From Candidatus Binatia bacterium (GTDB lineage: Bacteria > Desulfobacterota > Binatia > Bin18), in NCBI GenBank assembly GCA_022824615.1, contig JAJDZM010000093.1, positions 654 through 64,653 on the forward strand: a stretch of 64,000 bases of DNA, in the 5' to 3' direction. Within the stretch, counting starts at the first letter, position 1. Every line of letters begins with the position of its first letter. Shown in pieces: positions 3,077-12,281 of this stretch. The position numbers and the translations under genes are program-made. The notes under the pieces are model-generated. The model worked only from the letters and a program-made list of their open reading frames with translations. It had not been told where the DNA came from and ran no database searches.

Positions 3077-3115
3077 TTCCCTCTCCCCTCAAGGGGAGAG
3101 GGTCAGGGTGAGGGG
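3077..3115. repeat. REP-like hairpin element, copy 1 (CCCTCTCCCCT-caag-GGGAGAGGG-tcAGGGTGAGGGG)
   Basis: Perfect 10-bp inverted repeat followed by AGGGTGAGGG. A near-identical second copy lies at 53884-53921. Confidence 0.7.
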
Positions 3116-3122
3116 AGTCAAG

Positions 3123-4172
3123 ATGGTTCAGGAAGACATCTCGCTCATTAACCTGCCGAATCTTATTGGTTTTCTGCGTGACAGGCTCTCCCTGACGGAG
3201 GGCGACATCAGGATTGAACGGCACGAAGCCGGCTATTCAAACGAAACGTTTTTTGTCTCCTGGGGAGACAAACGCTGGGTGCTGCGGCGTCCGCCGAGCG
3301 GGGATCTCCTGCCGACCGCCCACGATATGCTGCGCGAATACCGGGTGCTGTCGGCCCTGTCCGGCTTTGATGTGCGGACTCCACAGCCGGTGCTTGCGTG
3401 TGAAGATCGGGACGTTCTCGGCGTTCCTTTTTATCTGATGCAGCGGGTGGACGGTATCGTGATCCGCGAAACGCTCCCGGAAGTTTTTGCCGCCCAGGAA
3501 GAACGCCAACGACTCGGAGAAGAATTAATCGACGCCCTCGCTGAGCTCCACGCCGTGCAATGGCAGGGTACGGACCTGGAAGGCATTGGCCGGCCGCAGG
3601 GCTATCTTGAACGCCAACTCAAACGCTGGACCAAACAGTACGAGCTGACCGTGCCGCATACTCGGCCATTGCCCGGACTCGAAGCAGTCGGCGACTGGCT
3701 GCACCGGCGGCTGCCGCCGGCGAGTGAAGCGACAGTTGTCCACGGCGACTATAAAGTTGATAACGTGATGTTTGGGGTGTCCACTCCGACCCGCTTAGTT
3801 GCCATATTCGACTGGGAAATGGCGACCCTGGGCGACCCGCTGACCGACCTGGGTTGGCTGCTCAGCTTCTGGGGGCCTACCGGGGATGAGCGAGACACCC
3901 CGGACCTGATTGACAGCAATGTCATGACCCAGTTGCCGGGCTTTTTATCCCGCGAAGAGATGGCCGCGCGCTATGCCGAGCGCACCGGCCGGACCATGGA
4001 ACACTTTCCCTTTTATCGCTGCTTAGCGGTTTGGAAGTACGCCATCATTCTGGAGGGCCTGTATCGGCACTATCTCGAAGGAACCGCGGCCAATCCGAAG
4101 GCCGCCGAGTTTGCGTGGAAGGTCCCCCAGCTCGTGCAGCGCGCCCAGCGGATTATGGTCGAGGCGGGCTGA
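3123..4172 (+). CDS. phosphotransferase enzyme family protein (APH-like kinase)
   Basis: HGDYKVDNVMF catalytic loop, DWE motif (IFDWEMATLGDP), overall APH/aminoglycoside-phosphotransferase fold signature. ATG at 3123 follows gagggg RBS. Confidence 0.8.
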   Translation: MVQEDISLINLPNLIGFLRDRLSLTEGDIRIERHEAGYSNETFFVSWGDKRWVLRRPPSGDLLPTAHDMLREYRVLSALSGFDVRTPQPVLACEDRDVLGVPFYLMQRVDGIVIRETLPEVFAAQEERQRLGEELIDALAELHAVQWQGTDLEGIGRPQGYLERQLKRWTKQYELTVPHTRPLPGLEAVGDWLHRRLPPASEATVVHGDYKVDNVMFGVSTPTRLVAIFDWEMATLGDPLTDLGWLLSFWGPTGDERDTPDLIDSNVMTQLPGFLSREEMAARYAERTGRTMEHFPFYRCLAVWKYAIILEGLYRHYLEGTAANPKAAEFAWKVPQLVQRAQRIMVEAG

Positions 4173-4277
4173 GCGTGGCGTTCAGAACCGCGTGCTGTCT
4201 GACCTCAGTAAGTCGAATGGCTGGGCTGGCTTTGCGAGCCGAAGAGGGAGTCGAGTTGCATTGACTTCCCAATCTGT

Positions 4278-4565
4278 ATGGCGTTGTATGAATTCATGCT
4301 GAATCAATGCGTTCTCGGCTTGTTGTTGGGCCTATTGTTCCTTCCCGGTCCGTTGTGGGCGGTGGAAGTGGCCCCGGTCCTGACCGACCGAGCGATTGCG
4401 GACAGCCTGACCCGGCTGGAAGAAGGACAGCGTGCGGTGCGGACCGAGGTTAGCCAACTCCGCGGGGATATGAACCGGCAGAATCAGCACCTGTGGGACG
4501 ACATCAACGCTCAGTCCAACCGTCAGTTTCGGCTCGAAAACGTTCGCATTGTCCGCTTTGAGTAG
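4278..4565 (+). CDS. small secreted hypothetical protein (signal peptide, coiled-coil-like)
   Basis: 95 aa ORF. Hydrophobic N-terminus LGLLLGLLFLPGPLWA. No recognisable family. Confidence 0.4.
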   Translation: MALYEFMLNQCVLGLLLGLLFLPGPLWAVEVAPVLTDRAIADSLTRLEEGQRAVRTEVSQLRGDMNRQNQHLWDDINAQSNRQFRLENVRIVRFE

Positions 4566-4579
4566 TTGGGTGCAGGTGA

Positions 4580-5356
4580 TTGATGGCTCTATGCCATTCC
4601 AGAGCACCGCCTGTCTTTCTGTTTCATGCCTGTGTGCTCTCTCTTTCGGCTGCCGCCTGTAGCGTCGTCCAGGCTCAGCCACAACGACCGCTCACGATTC
4701 CAGTGAAGCCAGCCAGTTCTCAGCCGTCAGCCTCAGTGCAGCCCTTACCGGCGCGGGCAGAAATTCGCCGTGACCCGCGACTGGGAACAATCACTTTTTT
4801 GAAGGCCCCGAATCTTTCCGAGCACCTGGAGCACGACCCGGATTTTGCCCAACTGCAAGCGAGCAAGCAATTTGGAGACTTGGCTCGTGCGTTCGTTCAC
4901 GCCTACCGAGCCGATTTCCGACTCGCTCAGCCCACCAACGAGTTCCGAGTACACTCAGTCAAGACCGACGCTCTGGGGCTGACCCACGTCCGTCTGCAAC
5001 AGACCTTTCATGATGTCCCTGTCTGGGCGGCCGAGGTGGTTGTGCACCTGAACGCCGACACCCAAGTCTACCTCATCCAGGGGCGCTATATTCCAACTCC
5101 GCACAATTTGTCTACCGACCCGGAGCTAACAGAACAGACGGCGTTACAGCGGGCTGTGGACCACCTTGGGCAACCTCTCACTGGGTGTCTCAAATGCCAG
5201 GCTGACCTCGTGATTTTTACGACGGAAGGCAAAGCCCCACGTCTGGCCTATCGCGTCCTGGCCTTGCTGAATTTAGCGGAAGGGTGGGAGGTAATGATTG
5301 ATGCCTGGACGGGCGAGATCCTGCAACAACTGTCCACCATACGCACCACGCAATAA
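4580..5356 (+). CDS. stand-alone M4-protease propeptide-like protein (FTP + PepSY domains), secreted
   Basis: Signal peptide. Clear similarity to the propeptide region of the downstream M4 protease (e.g. ...AELIVHLD.../...AEVVVHLN..., PRLAYRV / PRLAWKL, VMIDAWTGEIL / VVIDAINGDEL). It ends before any catalytic domain. Confidence 0.6.
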   Translation: MMALCHSRAPPVFLFHACVLSLSAAACSVVQAQPQRPLTIPVKPASSQPSASVQPLPARAEIRRDPRLGTITFLKAPNLSEHLEHDPDFAQLQASKQFGDLARAFVHAYRADFRLAQPTNEFRVHSVKTDALGLTHVRLQQTFHDVPVWAAEVVVHLNADTQVYLIQGRYIPTPHNLSTDPELTEQTALQRAVDHLGQPLTGCLKCQADLVIFTTEGKAPRLAYRVLALLNLAEGWEVMIDAWTGEILQQLSTIRTTQ

Positions 5357-5602
5357 CCTTCCAGTCTGATATCATCCCCGCCCCGCGTTGACATTTTCCC
5401 CTGCGTCCAGCATCTCCGCACTTGGTCAACCGTCAGTACGGAACCCGTTAAGTCGGGTCGCCTGCTGAATAGAACAGCCACTACAGGCGCGGGAGTCATG
5501 ACCTGCGCCGTGGTGAATACGCAGGACTCACTTCAGTTCCGTACTGTGTGGTTGACACGGCCCGGCACTCCCGCCGGAATTAATGGTTCACGAGGGAGAG
5601 CG

Positions 5603-8600
5603 ATGCCCGACTGGAGCAAGCATTTTTGGCAGCGTCAGGGAAAAGCGACTCAATGGCTATGTGGCGGGATCGTTCTGCTGACGACGCTCCTGGTGAGTCA
5701 GAATCTCGCCGACGGCAATAGCCCGGCCTTTCATTTCCATCCGCTGTCTCCACCCAACGCGATTGCTCCGACAAGCGAGTCGTCCGCAGAGACCGACCCT
5801 GACCCCCGTGCGACCGAGTTGGCCCGGCGTCTCCGCCAACATCTGGGACTCCAAACCGCAACGCAACGGACGGCAACGCAGCCTACCCCGGGACAGAGCA
5901 ACGCGCTGTCCCGACTGCGAGCCCGCCTCCAAGAGGCTGTCTCCGTTCGGCTCCGTCCTGCTGTTGGAACGCCCCTACAGATTAAGGGCAAGGCGATGGA
6001 GCGTGCCCAGTCCGGTTTCTTCTCCAGTTTTTTCTCTGGCAAAGAGACCCACGAGGCAACGGCCCGGACATTTCTCCAGACGAATCGTGCTCTGCTCCGC
6101 CTTGACGACCCGCAGGCCGAACTCACACTGACCCGGCAGCAGACCGACGACCTGAGCCAGACCCATCTGCGTTTTGACCAGACGTATAAGGGCCTGCTCG
6201 TGTGGCCGGCCGAGTTGATTGTCCATCTTGACCCGAACGGCCATGTTGATTTGCTGAATGGGGCGTTCGTACCCACTCCCAAAAAGCTCGACACGGTTCC
6301 GGTCATTGACGAAGTCACCGCCATCGAATACGCCCGCACTGCGCTGACCGACGGAGACAAGGCCGAGGTCAGCGCATCCGAACTCATTATTTACGCTCCC
6401 GGCGACACTCCGCCCCGACTGGCCTGGAAACTGGAGTTGGATATCGATTTGACCTCCCATTGGCTAGTGGTCATTGACGCTATCAACGGAGACGAGTTGA
6501 CCGCCTATAGCCAAATCATGCACCAGCATGTCTCCGGATCAGGTACAGATTTGTTCGGCATCACCCGTCCGCTCAATGTCTGGCAGCAAGACGGTTTTTT
6601 CTGGATGTTCGATACCAGCAAATCCATGTTCGATCCCAACGCAGACCCAAGAGAGCGTGGCGTTATCTGGATTTACGATGCACAGAACCAGCCGCCAACA
6701 TCCGACCCTGAGATCGTTGCCGATCTCATCCCTCCCGCTCCGGTCGTCAATTCGAGAAGTTCAACCTCCGGGTGGCTGCCTGATGCAGTCAGCGCGTCGT
6801 ACAACCTTTCTCAAGCTTACGACTATTATAGAGAGCGGCACAGTCGGGACTCTTATAACGGTGAGGGGGCATCAATTCACGCGATGGTGCGTCTTGGTCA
6901 GAATTTTCGGAATGCGTTCTATAACCCTGGTCTTAATCTGATAGCATTTGGCGATGGATTACCATATGCTGGAGCGCTTGACGTTGTTGGCCACGAACTG
7001 ACTCACAGCGTCATCCAGTACTCGGCGGATTTGGTCTATCGAAACCAGCCAGGAGCGCTGAATGAGGCTTTTTCAGACATCTTTGGAGAAATGATCGAAG
7101 CCCGGACTACGGGCAGGCCGGATTGGATTATGGGCCAAGTTCTTGGCGACCGGCGGTTCATGCGCAATATGGCCAACCCCGCCGCTTTCACCTTTTCTGC
7201 TGGGCGACCTTATCCGACCAGAATGAGCGAGTTTGTTGAACTACCACTGGATCAAGACAACGGCGGCGTTCATATCAATAGCAGTATTATCAACCGGGCG
7301 TATTATCTGCTCGCAGCGGGTCTTGACGGGGCCATAGGCTTGCGCGATGCCGAGCGAATTTTCTACCGCGCACTGACCGTCTATCTGACCCGAAACTCGC
7401 AGTTTATTGACGCCCGTCTGGCCTGTATTCAAGCCGCGGAAGATATTTTTAGAACGGAGTCAACCCAGACCCGGAAAACAGCCGAGGCGTTTGATGCTGT
7501 CGAGATTGGGGCCGTCCCTCCCACGCCGGACCTACCGGATATTCCCACCGTTCAGGGGCCGGATGCCAGCCTGTTTATATATCGTGACCAATCCGGTCAG
7601 TTCCGGCTGGGGCGGTTGGAAGACGCGCGCGGCGACGAGGCCCACGGTATACAACTCGCCAACGCGGTCGTGGCTGCGGCTCGGCCCTCTGTCTCCCGCA
7701 ATGGCGAGTTAGCCGTCTTTGTCAATGCCCAAAATGACCTCTGCTTGATCGGAACAGATGGGAGTGGGGAATGGTGCGCCGGTTTTCCGGGTCTTGTTGC
7801 TTCGGTTGCCATGTCACCCGACAGCCGCTTTTACGGATTTGTCTTTCGGGACGCTCAGGGCAATGCAGATAACCGGATCACTGTTCTTGATGTGGAAACC
7901 GGTCGAGACCGGACCTTCACCCTCACGGCGCCGTCCTACGATGGCCCGGCAACCGATACCATCCTCCGTGTCGACGCCATGGATTTCACCAATGACGGGC
8001 AGTGGGTCATCTACGACGCTCTGAACGCGATAAACTTCGCCGATGGTTCCCAACTGAGACAATGGAGCCTGTACGCCTTGCATCTGGCTACAGGCACAAA
8101 CTTGCCCTTGATCCGGCCCATACCCGGCCTCAATATCGCCTATCCATCCCTGAGTCAGACCAGTGATAATTTCCTGACCTTTGATGTTTTTGACGAAGCT
8201 CGGAATCAATCCACTGTCTACACCGCCAATCTGAATACCGGAAATGTGGCGACCATTACGACAGTGGCGGGCAGCTACGGCGTGCCCGGCTATACGGGCG
8301 ACGATGCGGCACTGGTGTTTTCCAAGGATGACACGAGCGTTCCGACCGGGTTTTCTCTGGTCCGGCAGCCATTGGCAGCCGACCGCATTACGCCCCAGGG
8401 CCAGGCATCGGTTTGGCTGAGGGATGCCGATTTTGGCGTCATCTACCGCCGGTCGGGCTTAACCGGTGTCCTGGAGAACCCCTCCTCCGGGGCGTTCCAG
8501 AGCGGCATCGGGCTGTTCTCCGGTTGGGTATGCGACGCCTTGCGGGTTGAGATTGAAATTAACGGTACGACACGGCTGAATGCCGCGTACAGGACCATTC

Positions 8601-9331
8601 GGAGTGACACGACTGGCGTTTGTGGAGACAGCAATAACGGCTTTACGCTTCTCTTCAATTGGAATCTGCTCGGCAATGGAACGCATACTGTACGCGCCCT
8701 GGCCGATGGTCAGGAATTTGGCCGGGCCACGTTTACCGTGACCACGCTGGGGGAAGAATTCCTGCGAGGGGCCGCTGGAGCTTACACGTTGCGCGATTTT
8801 CCAAGCGATGGTCAGACGGCTCGCATTGAATGGCAACAGACTTTGCAGAATTTCGTGATTACGCCGGGCAGCGGAGCGAGGCCGCCAAGAGCCGCCGCTC
8901 CGCAGGCGACGCCCGGTTTGGTCGGTGCCTTGGAAAACCCGAGCAATGCGTCGTTCCAGAGCGGTATCGGCTTATTTTCCGGTTGGGTGTGTGACGCTCA
9001 GCGGGTGGAGATTGAAATTAACGGGATGCGATTGCAGGCTGGATATGGGACCATTCGGAGCGATACGGCGGGGGTCTGTGGTGATACGAATAACGGCTTT
9101 GGCCTGCTGTTCAACTGGAATCTGCTGGGCAACGGCGTGCATACGGTGCGCGCCTTAGCCAATGGCCGGGAGTTCGGCCGGGCCACGTTTACCGTGACCA
9201 CGCTGGGGACAGAGTTCCTGAGGGGAGTCAGTGGAGCCTATAGGCTACCGGATTTCCCGCGACAAGGAAGAAATGTCCTTGTTGACTGGCAACAGGCTTC
9301 GCAGAACTTTGTGATTACCGGAGTAGAGTAG
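5603..9331 (+). CDS. secreted multi-domain M4 (thermolysin-family) zinc metallopeptidase: propeptide + catalytic + beta-propeller-like + 2 tandem C-terminal domains
   Basis: HEXXH (VVGHELTHSV) and the third zinc ligand motif NEAFSDIFGE. N-terminal signal peptide plus FTP/PepSY propeptide. Central TolB/WD40-like segment. Two approx 135-aa near-identical C-terminal repeats. Start at ATG 5603 (MPDWSKHFW...). Confidence 0.85.
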   Translation: MPDWSKHFWQRQGKATQWLCGGIVLLTTLLVSQNLADGNSPAFHFHPLSPPNAIAPTSESSAETDPDPRATELARRLRQHLGLQTATQRTATQPTPGQSNALSRLRARLQEAVSVRLRPAVGTPLQIKGKAMERAQSGFFSSFFSGKETHEATARTFLQTNRALLRLDDPQAELTLTRQQTDDLSQTHLRFDQTYKGLLVWPAELIVHLDPNGHVDLLNGAFVPTPKKLDTVPVIDEVTAIEYARTALTDGDKAEVSASELIIYAPGDTPPRLAWKLELDIDLTSHWLVVIDAINGDELTAYSQIMHQHVSGSGTDLFGITRPLNVWQQDGFFWMFDTSKSMFDPNADPRERGVIWIYDAQNQPPTSDPEIVADLIPPAPVVNSRSSTSGWLPDAVSASYNLSQAYDYYRERHSRDSYNGEGASIHAMVRLGQNFRNAFYNPGLNLIAFGDGLPYAGALDVVGHELTHSVIQYSADLVYRNQPGALNEAFSDIFGEMIEARTTGRPDWIMGQVLGDRRFMRNMANPAAFTFSAGRPYPTRMSEFVELPLDQDNGGVHINSSIINRAYYLLAAGLDGAIGLRDAERIFYRALTVYLTRNSQFIDARLACIQAAEDIFRTESTQTRKTAEAFDAVEIGAVPPTPDLPDIPTVQGPDASLFIYRDQSGQFRLGRLEDARGDEAHGIQLANAVVAAARPSVSRNGELAVFVNAQNDLCLIGTDGSGEWCAGFPGLVASVAMSPDSRFYGFVFRDAQGNADNRITVLDVETGRDRTFTLTAPSYDGPATDTILRVDAMDFTNDGQWVIYDALNAINFADGSQLRQWSLYALHLATGTNLPLIRPIPGLNIAYPSLSQTSDNFLTFDVFDEARNQSTVYTANLNTGNVATITTVAGSYGVPGYTGDDAALVFSKDDTSVPTGFSLVRQPLAADRITPQGQASVWLRDADFGVIYRRSGLTGVLENPSSGAFQSGIGLFSGWVCDALRVEIEINGTTRLNAAYRTIRSDTTGVCGDSNNGFTLLFNWNLLGNGTHTVRALADGQEFGRATFTVTTLGEEFLRGAAGAYTLRDFPSDGQTARIEWQQTLQNFVITPGSGARPPRAAAPQATPGLVGALENPSNASFQSGIGLFSGWVCDAQRVEIEINGMRLQAGYGTIRSDTAGVCGDTNNGFGLLFNWNLLGNGVHTVRALANGREFGRATFTVTTLGTEFLRGVSGAYRLPDFPRQGRNVLVDWQQASQNFVITGVE
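8455..9328 (+). repeat. intragenic tandem duplication: two approx 415-bp units encoding near-identical approx 135-aa domains (8455-8874 and 8914-9328)
   Basis: LENPS.A.FQSGIGLFSGWVCDA.RVEIEING...GRATFTVTTLG.EFLRG..GAY.L.DFP...W.Q..QNFVIT occurs twice. Antisense track ORFs 8443-8676 and 8998-9201 are also mutually similar, which confirms DNA-level repetition. Confidence 0.85.
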
Positions 9332-9554: not shown

Positions 9555-10601
9555 TCAGCCATGCCGTCCTCCCCTGAGCAGCAACTCCTTGGCCCGGCCA
9601 AAAAGCGTCTTGACCGACGGGGCGATCAGGTCCCATTCGGGATCGTGGCGCTTGCCGCGACGGTGCAGCATCACGTTAAAGCAACTGATCGCGCCAAAGC
9701 GATAGCCGGCCAAGGCACGATACCAATTGATATCGGGAACTTTGCGTTGCATGCCTTCTTCGTACAGCGCCACGAGTTCGTCAATCGGCGGGATGGTTGA
9801 TATTGGATGGCGTTCGGCATCCCAGCTTTCCGGGTCAATAAAGACCAGCAGCCAGCCGAGATCGAGCAGATGCCCGCTGATACCGGAAATCTCCCAATCC
9901 AGGAGGGCCACCAGTTGCTCGCCCGCGGATTGTTGGTCAAACAGCAGATTGGTCCCCTGATAGTCGCCGTGAAAGAGGCCGACCGGAGGGTCTGTGGGCT
10001 GGTGGGCCAGCAGGAGAGTACGCACCTCTTCGCCCCAGGTGATCCATTCCGGCTCTGCGGCTTTGGCTAAAATGGGGTCCCAGAAGCGGATTTCCTGTTC
10101 GAGTGAGCGGGGCGTTTCCCAGCCGGCCAGTTCGGTCTTCCAATCGAGTTGGTGGACCTGGATTAAAGCCTGCACCCCCTGCCGGTAGAGATGCGCGACG
10201 GCCTCGGCGTCCCGGCTAAACGACGCGTCGGGTTCCCAGACGTGGAAGGTGCGACCGGGCAGGCGTTCGACCATCAGGTACGGCACCTCGAACCAGCGCA
10301 GGTCGTCTCCGGCCCAACGCACCTCAGGGACAGGCACTCCGTTCTTCTTGAGCGCGCGCAGTAAAGGTGCTTGGCGCAGGACATCGGTATTCCCACTTTG
10401 GCGAACGCCTTTGGGCGGCAGGCGCATGACCAGAGATTCGTTTTCAGCTTGGCCGTCTTTTTCATAGGTCACGGTAAAGCCAAAACTTAGCCCGGCATGA
10501 CCAGGCATGGCCTCGACCTGGTGGACGGTCGCGTCTTGGCCATAATGGCTCAGACAGAACGCTTGTAATTGTTGTGTGAGGACAGGAATCTCAACGGCCA
10601 T
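9555..10601 (-). CDS. phosphotransferase enzyme family protein (APH-like kinase), paralogue of 3123-4172
   Basis: HGDYQGTNLLF catalytic loop, LDWEISGISGHLLDLGW. Start moved to ATG 10601 (MAVEIPVLTQ) preceded by AAGGAG RBS. Confidence 0.8.
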   Translation of the reverse strand: MAVEIPVLTQQLQAFCLSHYGQDATVHQVEAMPGHAGLSFGFTVTYEKDGQAENESLVMRLPPKGVRQSGNTDVLRQAPLLRALKKNGVPVPEVRWAGDDLRWFEVPYLMVERLPGRTFHVWEPDASFSRDAEAVAHLYRQGVQALIQVHQLDWKTELAGWETPRSLEQEIRFWDPILAKAAEPEWITWGEEVRTLLLAHQPTDPPVGLFHGDYQGTNLLFDQQSAGEQLVALLDWEISGISGHLLDLGWLLVFIDPESWDAERHPISTIPPIDELVALYEEGMQRKVPDINWYRALAGYRFGAISCFNVMLHRRGKRHDPEWDLIAPSVKTLFGRAKELLLRGGRHG

Positions 10602-10670
10602 ACGGTTCTCCTTGGTGAGTGGGCTGAGAGGAAGTTTACAAGGGATGGGAGTGAGTGAATAGTGGTGACT

Positions 10671-12281
10671 ATGCACTATGAGCTGACCGCTGAGGACCGT
10701 GCAGAGCTCCAGGCCCGCGGGATGTTACCCGAGACGGTTGCGACCCATATTCGGCAGTTTCAGCAGGGTTTCCCTCCCACTCAGTTGGAGCGACCGGGTA
10801 CGCTCGGTGATGGGATTGCCCGCATACCAGCAGAGACAGATCGACTCGCCCAGTTGCATGCCGAGGCTGCCGCAGCAGGACGCCTGATCAAATTTGTTCC
10901 TGCCTCGGGTGCGGCTAGTCGGATGTTTCAACTCCTGCTCTCTTTTGCCCAGCAGCCGGAGTTGCTCTCGAATCAGGTGCTGGCCAGGAAAGCGGCCGAG
11001 GGCGATGCCGACTGTCAGGCGTTTCATCGCTTTCTCGGTCAGCTTGACCACTTTGCTTTTGCCCAGGAACTGCGGACAGTCTTACACAGGGACGGCCACA
11101 CACTGGAGGGACTCCTGAGTCAGGGGCAATATCACACGCTCCTCACCTACCTCCTCACTCCAGCAGGATTGAACTATGCCAACCTGCCCAAAGGACTCGT
11201 GCCATTTCACACCTACGGAGACCATAGCCGGACCGCTTTTGAGGAACATCTGGTTGAAGCGCTGGAGTATGTCCGAGATGCCTCCTCCGTTGCGCGGCTG
11301 CACTTCACGGTTCCCGCACCCCACCGGCAGGTTATTCAGACGTATCTTGACGGCGTGCGCCACCGCTACGCTCAGCGGGGCGCTCAACTCGATATTTCGT
11401 ACTCTATTCAGAAGCCCGCGACAGACACCATCGCCGTGGACTCAGACAACGTCCCGATCAGGGATAGTAGCGGTGTCCTTACTTTTCGTCCCGGCGGGCA
11501 CGGCGCTCTACTGGAAAACCTGGCCGACCTTCAAGGGGATATCGTTTTTATTAAGAACATCGACAATGTCCTGCCCGACCGACTCAAGCCCGATACCTAC
11601 CGGTATAAAAAGCTCCTGTGCGGCTATCTTCTCCACCTCCAGCAACAGGCGTTTTTTCATATCGCACAACTCAAAGCCCCCCTCCCCAGTGAGTCGCCCG
11701 CCACGCGTATCGCTATTGATGCCGCTCGTTGCTTTGCTCAGGACCAATTGTCGCTTGTCCTGCCTCAAGACTTTGAGCGCACCGCAATGCTGCGCCAGTG
11801 TGATTTTCTCATTGCTCAACTCGATCGGCCGTTGCGCGTGTGTGGAGTGGTGAAAAATACCGGAGAGCCGGGTGGGGGGCCTTTCTGGGTCAGACAGGCC
11901 AACGGCGCCACCTCGCTCCAAATCGTCGAGGCTTCCCAGATCGATATGACAAACGCAGAGCAACGAGATCGCTGGCAGGCGGCCACCCACTTCAATCCGG
12001 TTGATCTCGTCTGTGGTGTGCGAGACTATCGCGGACGCCCCTTTCCGTTAACTCAGTTCGTCGACCCCGCGACCGGATTTATCTCCGAGAAATCAAAAGA
12101 CGGACGTTCCCTGCGGGCCCTGGAATTACCGGGGCTGTGGAACGGTGCGATGGCGCACTGGAATACGGTCTTTGTGGAAGTGCCGGGCAGTACATTCCAC
12201 CCCGTCAAGACGGTGATGGACCTTTTGCGACCTGAGCACCAGCCCTCCCCTGTTCCCCCATTGACAACCCGCCTCGATTGA
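10671..12281 (+). CDS. DUF4301-family conserved hypothetical protein
   Basis: N-terminal block ...GMLPETVATHIRQFQQGFPPTQLERPGTLGDGI... KFVPASGAASRMF recalls DUF4301 proteins. Assignment is from memory of the family signature. Confidence 0.55.
   Translation: MHYELTAEDRAELQARGMLPETVATHIRQFQQGFPPTQLERPGTLGDGIARIPAETDRLAQLHAEAAAAGRLIKFVPASGAASRMFQLLLSFAQQPELLSNQVLARKAAEGDADCQAFHRFLGQLDHFAFAQELRTVLHRDGHTLEGLLSQGQYHTLLTYLLTPAGLNYANLPKGLVPFHTYGDHSRTAFEEHLVEALEYVRDASSVARLHFTVPAPHRQVIQTYLDGVRHRYAQRGAQLDISYSIQKPATDTIAVDSDNVPIRDSSGVLTFRPGGHGALLENLADLQGDIVFIKNIDNVLPDRLKPDTYRYKKLLCGYLLHLQQQAFFHIAQLKAPLPSESPATRIAIDAARCFAQDQLSLVLPQDFERTAMLRQCDFLIAQLDRPLRVCGVVKNTGEPGGGPFWVRQANGATSLQIVEASQIDMTNAEQRDRWQAATHFNPVDLVCGVRDYRGRPFPLTQFVDPATGFISEKSKDGRSLRALELPGLWNGAMAHWNTVFVEVPGSTFHPVKTVMDLLRPEHQPSPVPPLTTRLD

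Follow-up and report, generated by a model that had tools for sequence, protein, structure and literature searches.

A separately encoded propeptide-like protein and a very large M4 metalloprotease form a conserved two-gene module in Binatia and related loci

The window, a 64,000-nucleotide stretch of DNA from an uncultured Candidatus Binatia bacterium, contains a small gene on the forward strand located directly upstream of the gene for an M4 (thermolysin-family) metalloprotease. The small gene encodes a free-standing, propeptide-like protein and is read from an ATG that sits four bases after an AGGTGA ribosome-binding site; its product is database protein P0001. The first-pass annotation had described a 258-aa open reading frame at 4580–5356; the frame exists on the forward strand, however the TTG that opens it is an alternative start, and the likely product is 257 aa long and begins at the ATG at 4583. 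The protease gene probably starts at an ATG which follows a GGGAGAG ribosome-binding site, so that its product is 1242 aa long rather than the 1243 aa first given. The two genes and the spacer between them are as follows.

4583–5356 (stop codon included), forward strand: small gene for the free-standing propeptide-like protein (257 aa); open reading frame with ATG at 4583 and AGGTGA ribosome-binding site
4580, forward strand: alternative TTG start of the small gene
5357–5602, forward strand: intergenic spacer, 246 nt
5603–9331, forward strand: M4 metalloprotease precursor of 1242 aa with an N-terminal Sec-type signal; equals database protein P0047

The spacer was searched for a terminator-like site, a promoter-like site and an Rfam match, and none was found. 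In the window both genes and the spacer share one reading frame, interrupted by just one TAA. This arrangement, together with the paralogy of the small gene to the 5' part of its neighbor, would be in line with a tandem duplication of the protease gene followed by decay of one copy, or by a mis-called open reading frame. The shared frame is not kept elsewhere; at the related locus L009 the two genes overlap in another frame, and at L023 their frames differ. Since relatives have either differing frames or overlapping genes, the shared frame of the window is regarded as a coincidence, and stop-codon readthrough or gene fusion was rejected on the same grounds.

Two APH-family kinases flank the pair in the window (Pfam 4.5e-54 and 1.7e-23), as was noted at first; neither they nor a 95-aa open reading frame upstream have a counterpart in any related locus, which rules out all three as parts of the module and makes the kinases irrelevant to it. 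Directly upstream of the small gene, eleven other Binatia loci encode a highly conserved secreted protein of approximately 150 aa; the window keeps only the last 18 codons of that gene (4509–4562), fused to an unrelated 5' part, which indicates a rearrangement breakpoint approximately 70 nt upstream of the small gene.

The partner protease has its own complete propeptide, M4 catalytic domains and a long C-terminal extension, with the following features.

5900–6532, forward strand: the protease's own propeptide, about residues 100–310, paralogous to the small protein (BLASTP, profile, Pfam FTP 1.3e-13)
6536–7507, forward strand: M4 catalytic domains (Pfam Peptidase_M4 1.4e-25, Peptidase_M4_C 4e-41)
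6992–7006, forward strand: protease motif HELTH
7061–7078, forward strand: protease motif NEAFSD
7262–7273, forward strand: protease motif GGVH
7601–9328, forward strand: C-terminal extension of 576 residues (AlphaFold2 model with pLDDT 75, Foldseek)

No family reached its cutoff when the C-terminal 576 residues were scanned against Pfam. The AlphaFold2 model of this extension features a TolB/YVTN-like β-propeller followed by two tandem β-rich repeats of approximately 130 aa each; the repeats are 77% identical to each other and each contains conserved cysteines, while Foldseek matches the extension to TolB and YVTN propellers at 1e-9 to 1e-8. Proteases partnered with the small gene are unusually large in general, ranging from 964 to 1456 aa with extra C-terminal domains.

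The small protein can be divided into an export signal, a linker and a folded body made up of two propeptide-type domains.

4583–4660, forward strand: signal peptide with a lipobox-like end, LSAAAC, at Cys26 (motif, conserved Cys)
4661–4753, forward strand: Pro/Gln/Ser-rich linker, residues 27–57, predicted to be disordered (pLDDT below 50 for residues 1–50)
4754–5338, forward strand: folded propeptide-like body, residues 58–252 (pLDDT, Foldseek, profile against the PDB)
4937–5089, forward strand: FTP motif, residues 119–169 (Pfam PF07504, E 2.1e-17, 63 bits against a cutoff of 21, profile positions 1–51 of 51)
5132–5338, forward strand: PepSY-like domain, residues 184–252, with one helix and four strands (model, Foldseek, prothermolysin alignment)
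5186–5197, forward strand: CxxC pair formed by Cys202 and Cys205, on the loop that follows the PepSY helix (codons TGT CTC AAA TGC)

Homology of the small protein along its length to the propeptide of the adjacent protease, claimed from the start, is borne out by BLASTP and by profile alignment. BLASTP gives 36% identity over 156 aa (E 1e-24), with residues 102–254 of the small protein aligned to residues 189–340 of the protease in a 1277-aa numbering, equivalent to 155–306 when counted from the start at 5603; this interval replaces the region of approximately 170–380 proposed beforehand. A profile of the small family aligns to partner-protease propeptides over profile positions 43–256 in some cases, and positions 47–256 align to residues 101–308 of the window's own protease; almost all of the folded portion of the small protein is therefore covered by the homology. 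Pfam recognizes FTP in both proteins (E 2e-17 in the small protein, 1e-13 in the protease). Peptidase_M4 and Peptidase_M4_C are found only in the large protein, in agreement with the earlier description of a small protein with no catalytic domain, and a Pfam scan of the small protein at E-values up to 10 yielded nothing beyond FTP and PepSY, with neither I9 nor I29 among the matches. The PepSY match is below its cutoff (PF03413, E 0.049, 14.4 bits against 24); a homologue, P0038, has a precomputed PF03413 match, and the helix-plus-four-strand unit is modeled with high confidence and matches PepSY structures (AlphaFold2, Foldseek).

Through AlphaFold2 modeling from 33 aligned sequences the folded body is predicted to begin with an N-terminal β-hairpin carrying the motif AEIRRDPxxGTITFLKAPNLS, followed by a helical segment, the FTP β-sheet, a GRYIPTP hinge and the PepSY-like domain. 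Block-mean pLDDT values are 84–98 (mostly above 90) for residues 61–250, 80 for residues 51–60 and below 50 for residues 1–50. The best Foldseek matches among solved structures are the propeptide chain of vibriolysin MCP-02 (3nqz_A, 8.7e-9, TM 0.63 normalized to the target) and that of Aspergillus fungalysin (4k90_B, 5.3e-8, TM 0.61); a sequence profile searched against the PDB matches prothermolysin (5a3y, 1e-17) as well as the fungalysin and MCP-02 propeptides and the LasB pro-elastase. Approximately 27 core positions are common to the small family and the partner propeptides, with residues of the FTP motif, the hinge G-x-x-x-P-T-P and the W...DA..G motif of PepSY among them; the fold, and likely the enzyme-binding surface, would thus be retained in the small protein. 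Sequence and modeled fold place the small protein in the FTP-PepSY propeptide family; however, it is a separate open reading frame with its own start, signal peptide and stop rather than the N-terminal part of a protease precursor, and because it lies outside any precursor it fails one defining property of a propeptide. Its closest cluster representatives, roughly 140 in number, are likewise short, at 190–330 aa.

The small gene is a real gene under purifying selection. In pairwise comparisons of Binatia orthologues the folded part of the small protein has dN/dS values of 0.17–0.35, and in the same comparison the protease's own propeptide has values of 0.18–0.28 and the catalytic domain 0.19–0.37; the N-terminal 54 residues of the small protein are far less constrained, at 0.45–1.09. 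A decayed fragment with a disrupted fold was looked for and is not borne out by the selection values, the pLDDT of at least 84 or the matches to propeptide chains. The possibility that the small gene is a decaying duplicate or a mis-called frame has to be set against its dN/dS, the approximately 140 clusters of proteins of similar length that accompany it and a fold modeled with high confidence, as well as its own signal peptide and ribosome-binding site and a shared frame which is not conserved; we consider this explanation scarcely credible.

The N-terminus of the small protein was initially read as that of a secreted protein. Export is supported by the signal peptide; the protein is probably a lipoprotein, however, rather than simply secreted, as judged from the lipobox-like Cys26. 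Throughout the Binatia clade this cysteine never varies, and the orthologues there read [VI][TSAIP]AC; in a crude motif count, a lipobox-like Cys follows the hydrophobic stretch in 83 of the 121 family representatives whose N-terminus is complete. The A-A-A-C of the window is non-canonical, and cleavage by signal peptidase I after VQA (residue 31) is an alternative; a subclade, P0039–P0044, has an ordinary signal-peptidase I site in place of the lipobox. Membrane tethering is therefore not universal, since part of the family does not have the lipobox Cys. The linker of about 30 residues that follows is predicted by the model to be disordered and probably acts as a flexible tether.

Like the lipobox-type Cys and the linker, the CxxC pair was not noticed at first. 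About half of the family has it; across 144 family representatives, both cysteines are found in 74, one in 14 and none in 56. The window protease's own propeptide has no Cys at either position, and partner propeptides have no conserved Cys in the column of Cys205. The both-or-none pattern suggests a disulfide between Cys202 and Cys205. The idea that CxxC serves throughout the family as a functional site, for instance as a cysteine switch acting on the catalytic zinc, was considered and rejected, as just 74 of the 144 have the pair and the pattern is one of both or none; a structural disulfide is more likely from the sequence pattern than a role as zinc ligand, which is not favored.

The small FTP-PepSY gene and the M4 protease gene make up a conserved two-gene module. 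An M4 protease adjoins the small gene in every locus with readable neighboring DNA (approximately 25 loci, down to 30–35% identity), among them loci of Binatia, of one Syntrophobacteraceae genome and of metagenome contigs without an assigned taxon; in all but one the protease, a large HExxH enzyme, is directly downstream on the same strand, and it still has its own propeptide wherever the contig extends over its N-terminal part. All 11 Binatia genome loci have the pair, with proteases of 1167–1456 aa and two loci frameshifted in the assemblies. At L002 (57% identity) and at L003 and L004 (44%) the pair is present among entirely different neighbors; it is likewise present at L036 (Syntrophobacteraceae, 35%), and at the P0178 locus (47%) and L037 (35%), where the C-terminal domains of the protease differ. 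The adjoining M4 protease of L038 (30%) is convergently oriented. A metagenome scan with a 26-sequence alignment found 13 loci, five of which end at a contig edge; in all eight loci with enough downstream DNA the next gene contains a propeptide, and in seven of these eight an M4 catalytic domain. Loci in which the pairing is missing were looked for among relatives and not seen; the pair recurs in every locus with readable neighboring DNA. The spacer is 15–106 nt in other loci, or is replaced by a 4-nt gene overlap, compared with 246 nt in the window; such short spacers and overlaps imply co-expression. As neither decay nor lost pairing was seen, the earlier suggestion that the small protein is a functional, dedicated partner of the protease is supported by purifying selection, an intact modeled fold and the recurrent pairing.

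Conservation of the pair also bears on which protein the small protein acts upon. In the Foldseek list the propeptides are followed by the PepSY domains of YpeB (5boi, 1.5e-6), and YycI and YpmB are listed as well; PepSY proteins are known to regulate partners other than M4 proteases, an example being YpeB with SleB (PMC13556211). The small protein could by analogy be a PepSY-type envelope regulator of some other target, such as another hydrolase or a signaling protein, with its linkage to the protease reflecting shared regulation only. It has kept the complete FTP plus PepSY propeptide rather than PepSY alone, however, and the M4 gene is adjacent in every informative locus while the remaining neighbors change; the small gene and the protease gene are also co-inherited. 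A target other than the M4 protease is thus considered very improbable.

The family of the small protein is broad. An exhaustive profile search over 1.84 billion cluster representatives gave 260 matches below 1e-30; among the best 150 of these 260, about 145 are proteins of 117–358 aa, and 139 are proteins of 195–335 aa that cover profile positions from about 45 to 257. Full-length proteases appear in the profile-search list only from E-values of approximately 1e-40. The small family accordingly has at least about 140 clusters at the 50% identity level, with similar protein lengths; named taxa among its members are Binatia, Syntrophobacteraceae and Desulfobacteraceae. In databases the short proteins are named only "hypothetical protein" or, misleadingly, "Zn-dependent metalloprotease". 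Searches of NCBIfam gave only weak, partial matches to M36 and M4 protease models, far below the cutoffs, and neither an NCBIfam model nor a Pfam family describes the stand-alone protein. Literature searches for a stand-alone M4, FTP or PepSY partner found no description of one, nor did they yield any account of an entire FTP-PepSY paralogue that is encoded together with an M4 protease and devoted to it.

Neighbor-joining trees were constructed on a common core of approximately 157 residues. The small proteins fall in one clade and the propeptides of partner proteases in another, with propeptides of unpartnered M4 proteases from other phyla outside both; bootstrap support is only moderate, with 52% for the clade of small proteins, 72% for that of partner propeptides and 59% for the grouping of both to the exclusion of the outgroup. 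Branching in one clade follows the same order as in the other, and the pairwise identities among small proteins correlate with those among partner propeptides (Mantel r = 0.93 over 18 loci, a value reached in none of 5000 permutations). Identity between a small protein and the propeptide of its own partner is flat at 27–37% everywhere. These sequence comparisons give moderate support to a single old duplication of the propeptide of the protease lineage followed by stable co-inheritance. Some shuffling is seen within Binatia; the small gene of the window is closest to those of L006 and L008, and its protease to those of L011, L012 and L013.

Propeptides of M4 enzymes act as folding chaperones and also as inhibitors, which stay bound after cleavage until they are degraded (PMC13576997; PMC13556211). 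It is hypothesized that the small protein is a membrane-tethered, trans-acting inhibitor or holdase (a latency factor) of the mature protease, a role to which we would give an even chance on the basis of sequence, modeled structure and analogy. The protease's own propeptide would carry out folding, be cut off and eventually be destroyed, as in LasB and other M4 enzymes, while the separately encoded copy would be beyond the reach of removal by autoprocessing. With a probable lipid anchor at its N-terminus, a flexible linker of approximately 30 residues and a probable stabilizing disulfide, the small protein would bind the mature catalytic domain on the surface used by the protease's own propeptide and, being tethered, would act as a reversible inhibitor or holdase; such an arrangement may shield the envelope against enzyme maturing ahead of export, or may keep protease in latent form at the cell. 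Among the roles put forward at first (trans-acting inhibitor, maturation factor or immunity-like partner), a tethered inhibitor or holdase is favored because the protease's own propeptide covers folding and because the copy is non-removable, probably tethered and probably braced by a disulfide.

Certain features count against this proposal. The tail past the last PepSY strand of the small protein is approximately 5 residues long, and may be too short to fill the active-site cleft in the way that a cleaved propeptide fills it with its C-terminus. In the window the lipobox departs from the canonical form, some members of the family have no lipobox, and the CxxC is restricted to about half of the family.

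The same propeptide fold would also suit a trans-acting foldase or maturation factor, which would help the very large protease to fold or autoprocess and then be released with no lasting inhibition. The whole propeptide fold is kept in the modeled small protein, the upstream position and the overlapping or closely spaced genes are suited to co-translation, and partner proteases of such unusual size, with their extra C-terminal domains, may benefit from assistance. Parallels are known in the lipase-specific foldases and in the thermolysin propeptide, which can be supplied in trans. The chaperone function of M4 propeptides (PMC13576997; PMC13556211) is also in line with this role; against it, the protease has its own intact propeptide, which is under the same constraint and already supplies a folding catalyst, so that a second chaperone would be less needed than a second inhibitor. 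The membrane tether and probable disulfide would, in addition, better match a stable binding partner than a transient catalyst. A foldase is therefore considered possible but unlikely.

Another role consistent with the lipobox-type Cys and the disordered linker of about 30 residues is that of a docking receptor at the cell surface or envelope, which would hold the mature, active protease at the cell with its active site unblocked and so keep digestion products close by. The short C-terminal tail, which may not reach the active site, would be explained by such a role, as would a protease without a recognizable anchor of its own. Bound propeptide is inhibitory in the characterized M4 systems (PMC13556211; PMC13576997), however, and the same binding without inhibition would be unusual; docking is for this reason regarded as improbable.

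A more elaborate form of the inhibitor or holdase proposal is a relay of two propeptides for giant M4 proteases, in which the small proteins would be a widespread, unnamed family of lipoprotein "trans-propeptides". The protease's own propeptide would fold the enzyme and be destroyed, after which the non-cleavable, tethered paralogue would capture the mature enzyme; the result would be a reversibly latent, cell-bound pool with regulated release, for example through redox change at the CxxC or degradation of the tether. This relay is offered tentatively and is considered unlikely.

Several known systems resemble the pair in part. The propeptides of the M4 and M36 families (thermolysin, vibriolysin MCP-02, LasB pro-elastase and the fungalysin Mep) share with the small protein the FTP plus PepSY fold and the sequence family; they are N-terminal precursor parts removed by autoprocessing, whereas the small protein is a separate gene product. 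Unlike them, the small protein has its own signal peptide, a lipoprotein-type Cys, a linker and a CxxC, and coexists with the complete propeptide of the protease. Stand-alone mimics of subtilisin propeptides are grouped in MEROPS family I9 and include Pleurotus POIA1, the yeast proteinase B inhibitor, Arabidopsis SPI-1, Toxoplasma MIC5 and Plasmodium SUB1-ProM (PMC6993865); these mimics are potent inhibitors, and SUB1-ProM is encoded in a syntenic locus beside its target subtilase genes (PMC6993865). Like the small protein, the I9 mimics are small, separate gene products that resemble a protease's propeptide; inhibition is proven by experiment for I9 and hypothesized here. I9 proteins have another fold and belong with serine proteases of the S8 clan, in contrast to the FTP-PepSY fold and metallo M4 partner of the small protein. 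Neither sequence nor fold places the small protein in I9 or I29, as its matches in a Pfam scan and in structural comparisons are M4/M36 propeptides and PepSY proteins.

MEROPS I29 comprises cathepsin-propeptide-like inhibitors, and a related arrangement is seen with Spi, the inhibitor of the streptococcal cysteine protease SpeB, which is the propeptide-like product of an adjacent small gene; Spi is cytoplasmic and is not known to have a signal peptide. The Spi-SpeB pair is like that of the window in joining a protease gene to an adjoining propeptide-like small gene, however it belongs to the cysteine clan and has an unrelated fold. The inhibitors of MEROPS I38 (AprI, Inh, SmaPI and the Brucella lipoprotein Omp19) are small, exported and sometimes lipidated proteins encoded beside secreted metalloproteases, and their presumed role is to shield the periplasm against enzyme that becomes active too early. 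I38 inhibitors have an unrelated β-barrel fold, target serralysins (M10) and are not known to derive from propeptides, whereas the small protein has a propeptide fold and an M4 partner. That free PepSY proteins regulate hydrolases or peptidases in trans was hypothesized by Yeats, Rawlings and Bateman in 2004, as cited in PMC13556211; the same paper describes free-standing PepSY domains of YpeB as holding SleB inactive and possibly also chaperoning it. YpeB-type proteins consist of PepSY repeats without FTP and have non-M4 partners, in contrast to the complete two-domain propeptide and M4 partner considered here. Each element of the inhibitor or holdase proposal has a precedent among these systems, and the small protein is hypothesized to work in the manner of the stand-alone propeptide mimics known from other clans of proteases.

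Proteases of the thermolysin family are of major importance both as virulence factors of bacteria and as industrial enzymes, and their control is thought to rest on the propeptide within the precursor; we know of no dedicated protein partner from the producing cell described for them. The locus adds a conserved, separately encoded copy of the propeptide which is invariably found together with M4 proteases of a very large subclass in size. As a family these copies are widespread, unnamed and mis-annotated, although their existence may not be very surprising to a protease specialist. If the small protein is an inhibitor or holdase, the principle of the stand-alone propeptide mimic, proven for subtilases and cysteine proteases, would extend to metalloproteases; it would also provide a natural protein scaffold for specific M4 inhibitors, and a systematic mis-annotation would be corrected. 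Should the relay of two propeptides prove true, the small protein would represent a new layer of zymogen control and, for the thermolysin family, the first dedicated self-inhibitor or holdase of protein nature to be described.

The region immediately 5′ of the small gene, which encodes the exported paralogue of the M4 propeptide, and the flanks of the pair it forms with the adjoining protease contain the following features in the window:

3108-4172, + strand, APH-family phosphotransferase gene, flanking the pair
4278-4565, + strand, ORF of 95 aa preceding the small gene
9555-10676, − strand, APH-family phosphotransferase gene, flanking the pair

Similarity of the 95-aa ORF to other loci is confined to its last 18 residues, FRLENVRIVRFE (4509-4562, + strand); these match the C-terminal end of a secreted, highly conserved ~150-aa protein, and this places a rearrangement breakpoint in the window ~70 nt 5′ of the small gene. 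In 11 other Binatia loci, the gene for the ~150-aa protein, which is without a Pfam or NCBIfam family, immediately precedes the small gene; this third gene of the Binatia cluster has been lost or replaced in the window. The two APH-family genes are present on opposite strands around the pair, as the first-pass annotation had described; their products share only ~26% identity, and both genes are missing from the flanks of every related locus.

In the window, the ORFs of the small protein and the protease share a reading frame, and only one TAA stop, followed by 82 sense codons, lies between them (5354-5602). The frame is not kept in related loci with the pair, as the two ORFs overlap by 4 nt in L009 and lie in different frames in L023; the common frame is therefore probably a coincidence rather than a sign of readthrough.

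The protease carries a large C-terminal extension, which has no Pfam family:

7601-9328, + strand, protease residues 667-1242, predicted structure

This extension models as a TolB/YVTN-like β-propeller followed by two tandem β-rich repeats; the repeats are ~130 aa each with 77% mutual identity, their starts are marked by ENPS motifs at residues 958 and 1111, and each contains conserved cysteines. The C-terminal domains of partner proteases differ in other lineages, which feature HYDIN/ASH Ig-like, DUF4214, or CLIPPER/He_PIG domains.

L038, at 30% identity, is the locus of the most distant family member examined, and an M4 protease also adjoins the small-protein homologue there:

3753-4580 and 4723-7563 of L038, convergent, the pair

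The adjacent protease gene is convergent there, not downstream in the same orientation; the contig stops short of its N-terminus, where any propeptide of its own would lie.

Among the related Binatia loci, one genome contains two pairs (L011 and L013), and a second M4 protease follows in tandem downstream in L007 and L014. Synonymous distances between the window pair (4583-9331) and those of L006-L014 are discordant between the two genes: the small gene is nearest those of L006 and L008 (dS 0.37), whereas the propeptide region of the protease is nearest L011 (dS 0.37, versus 0.91 for L006). Such a pattern would be expected if paralogous pairs had recombined or been shuffled, which is the reading suggested here.
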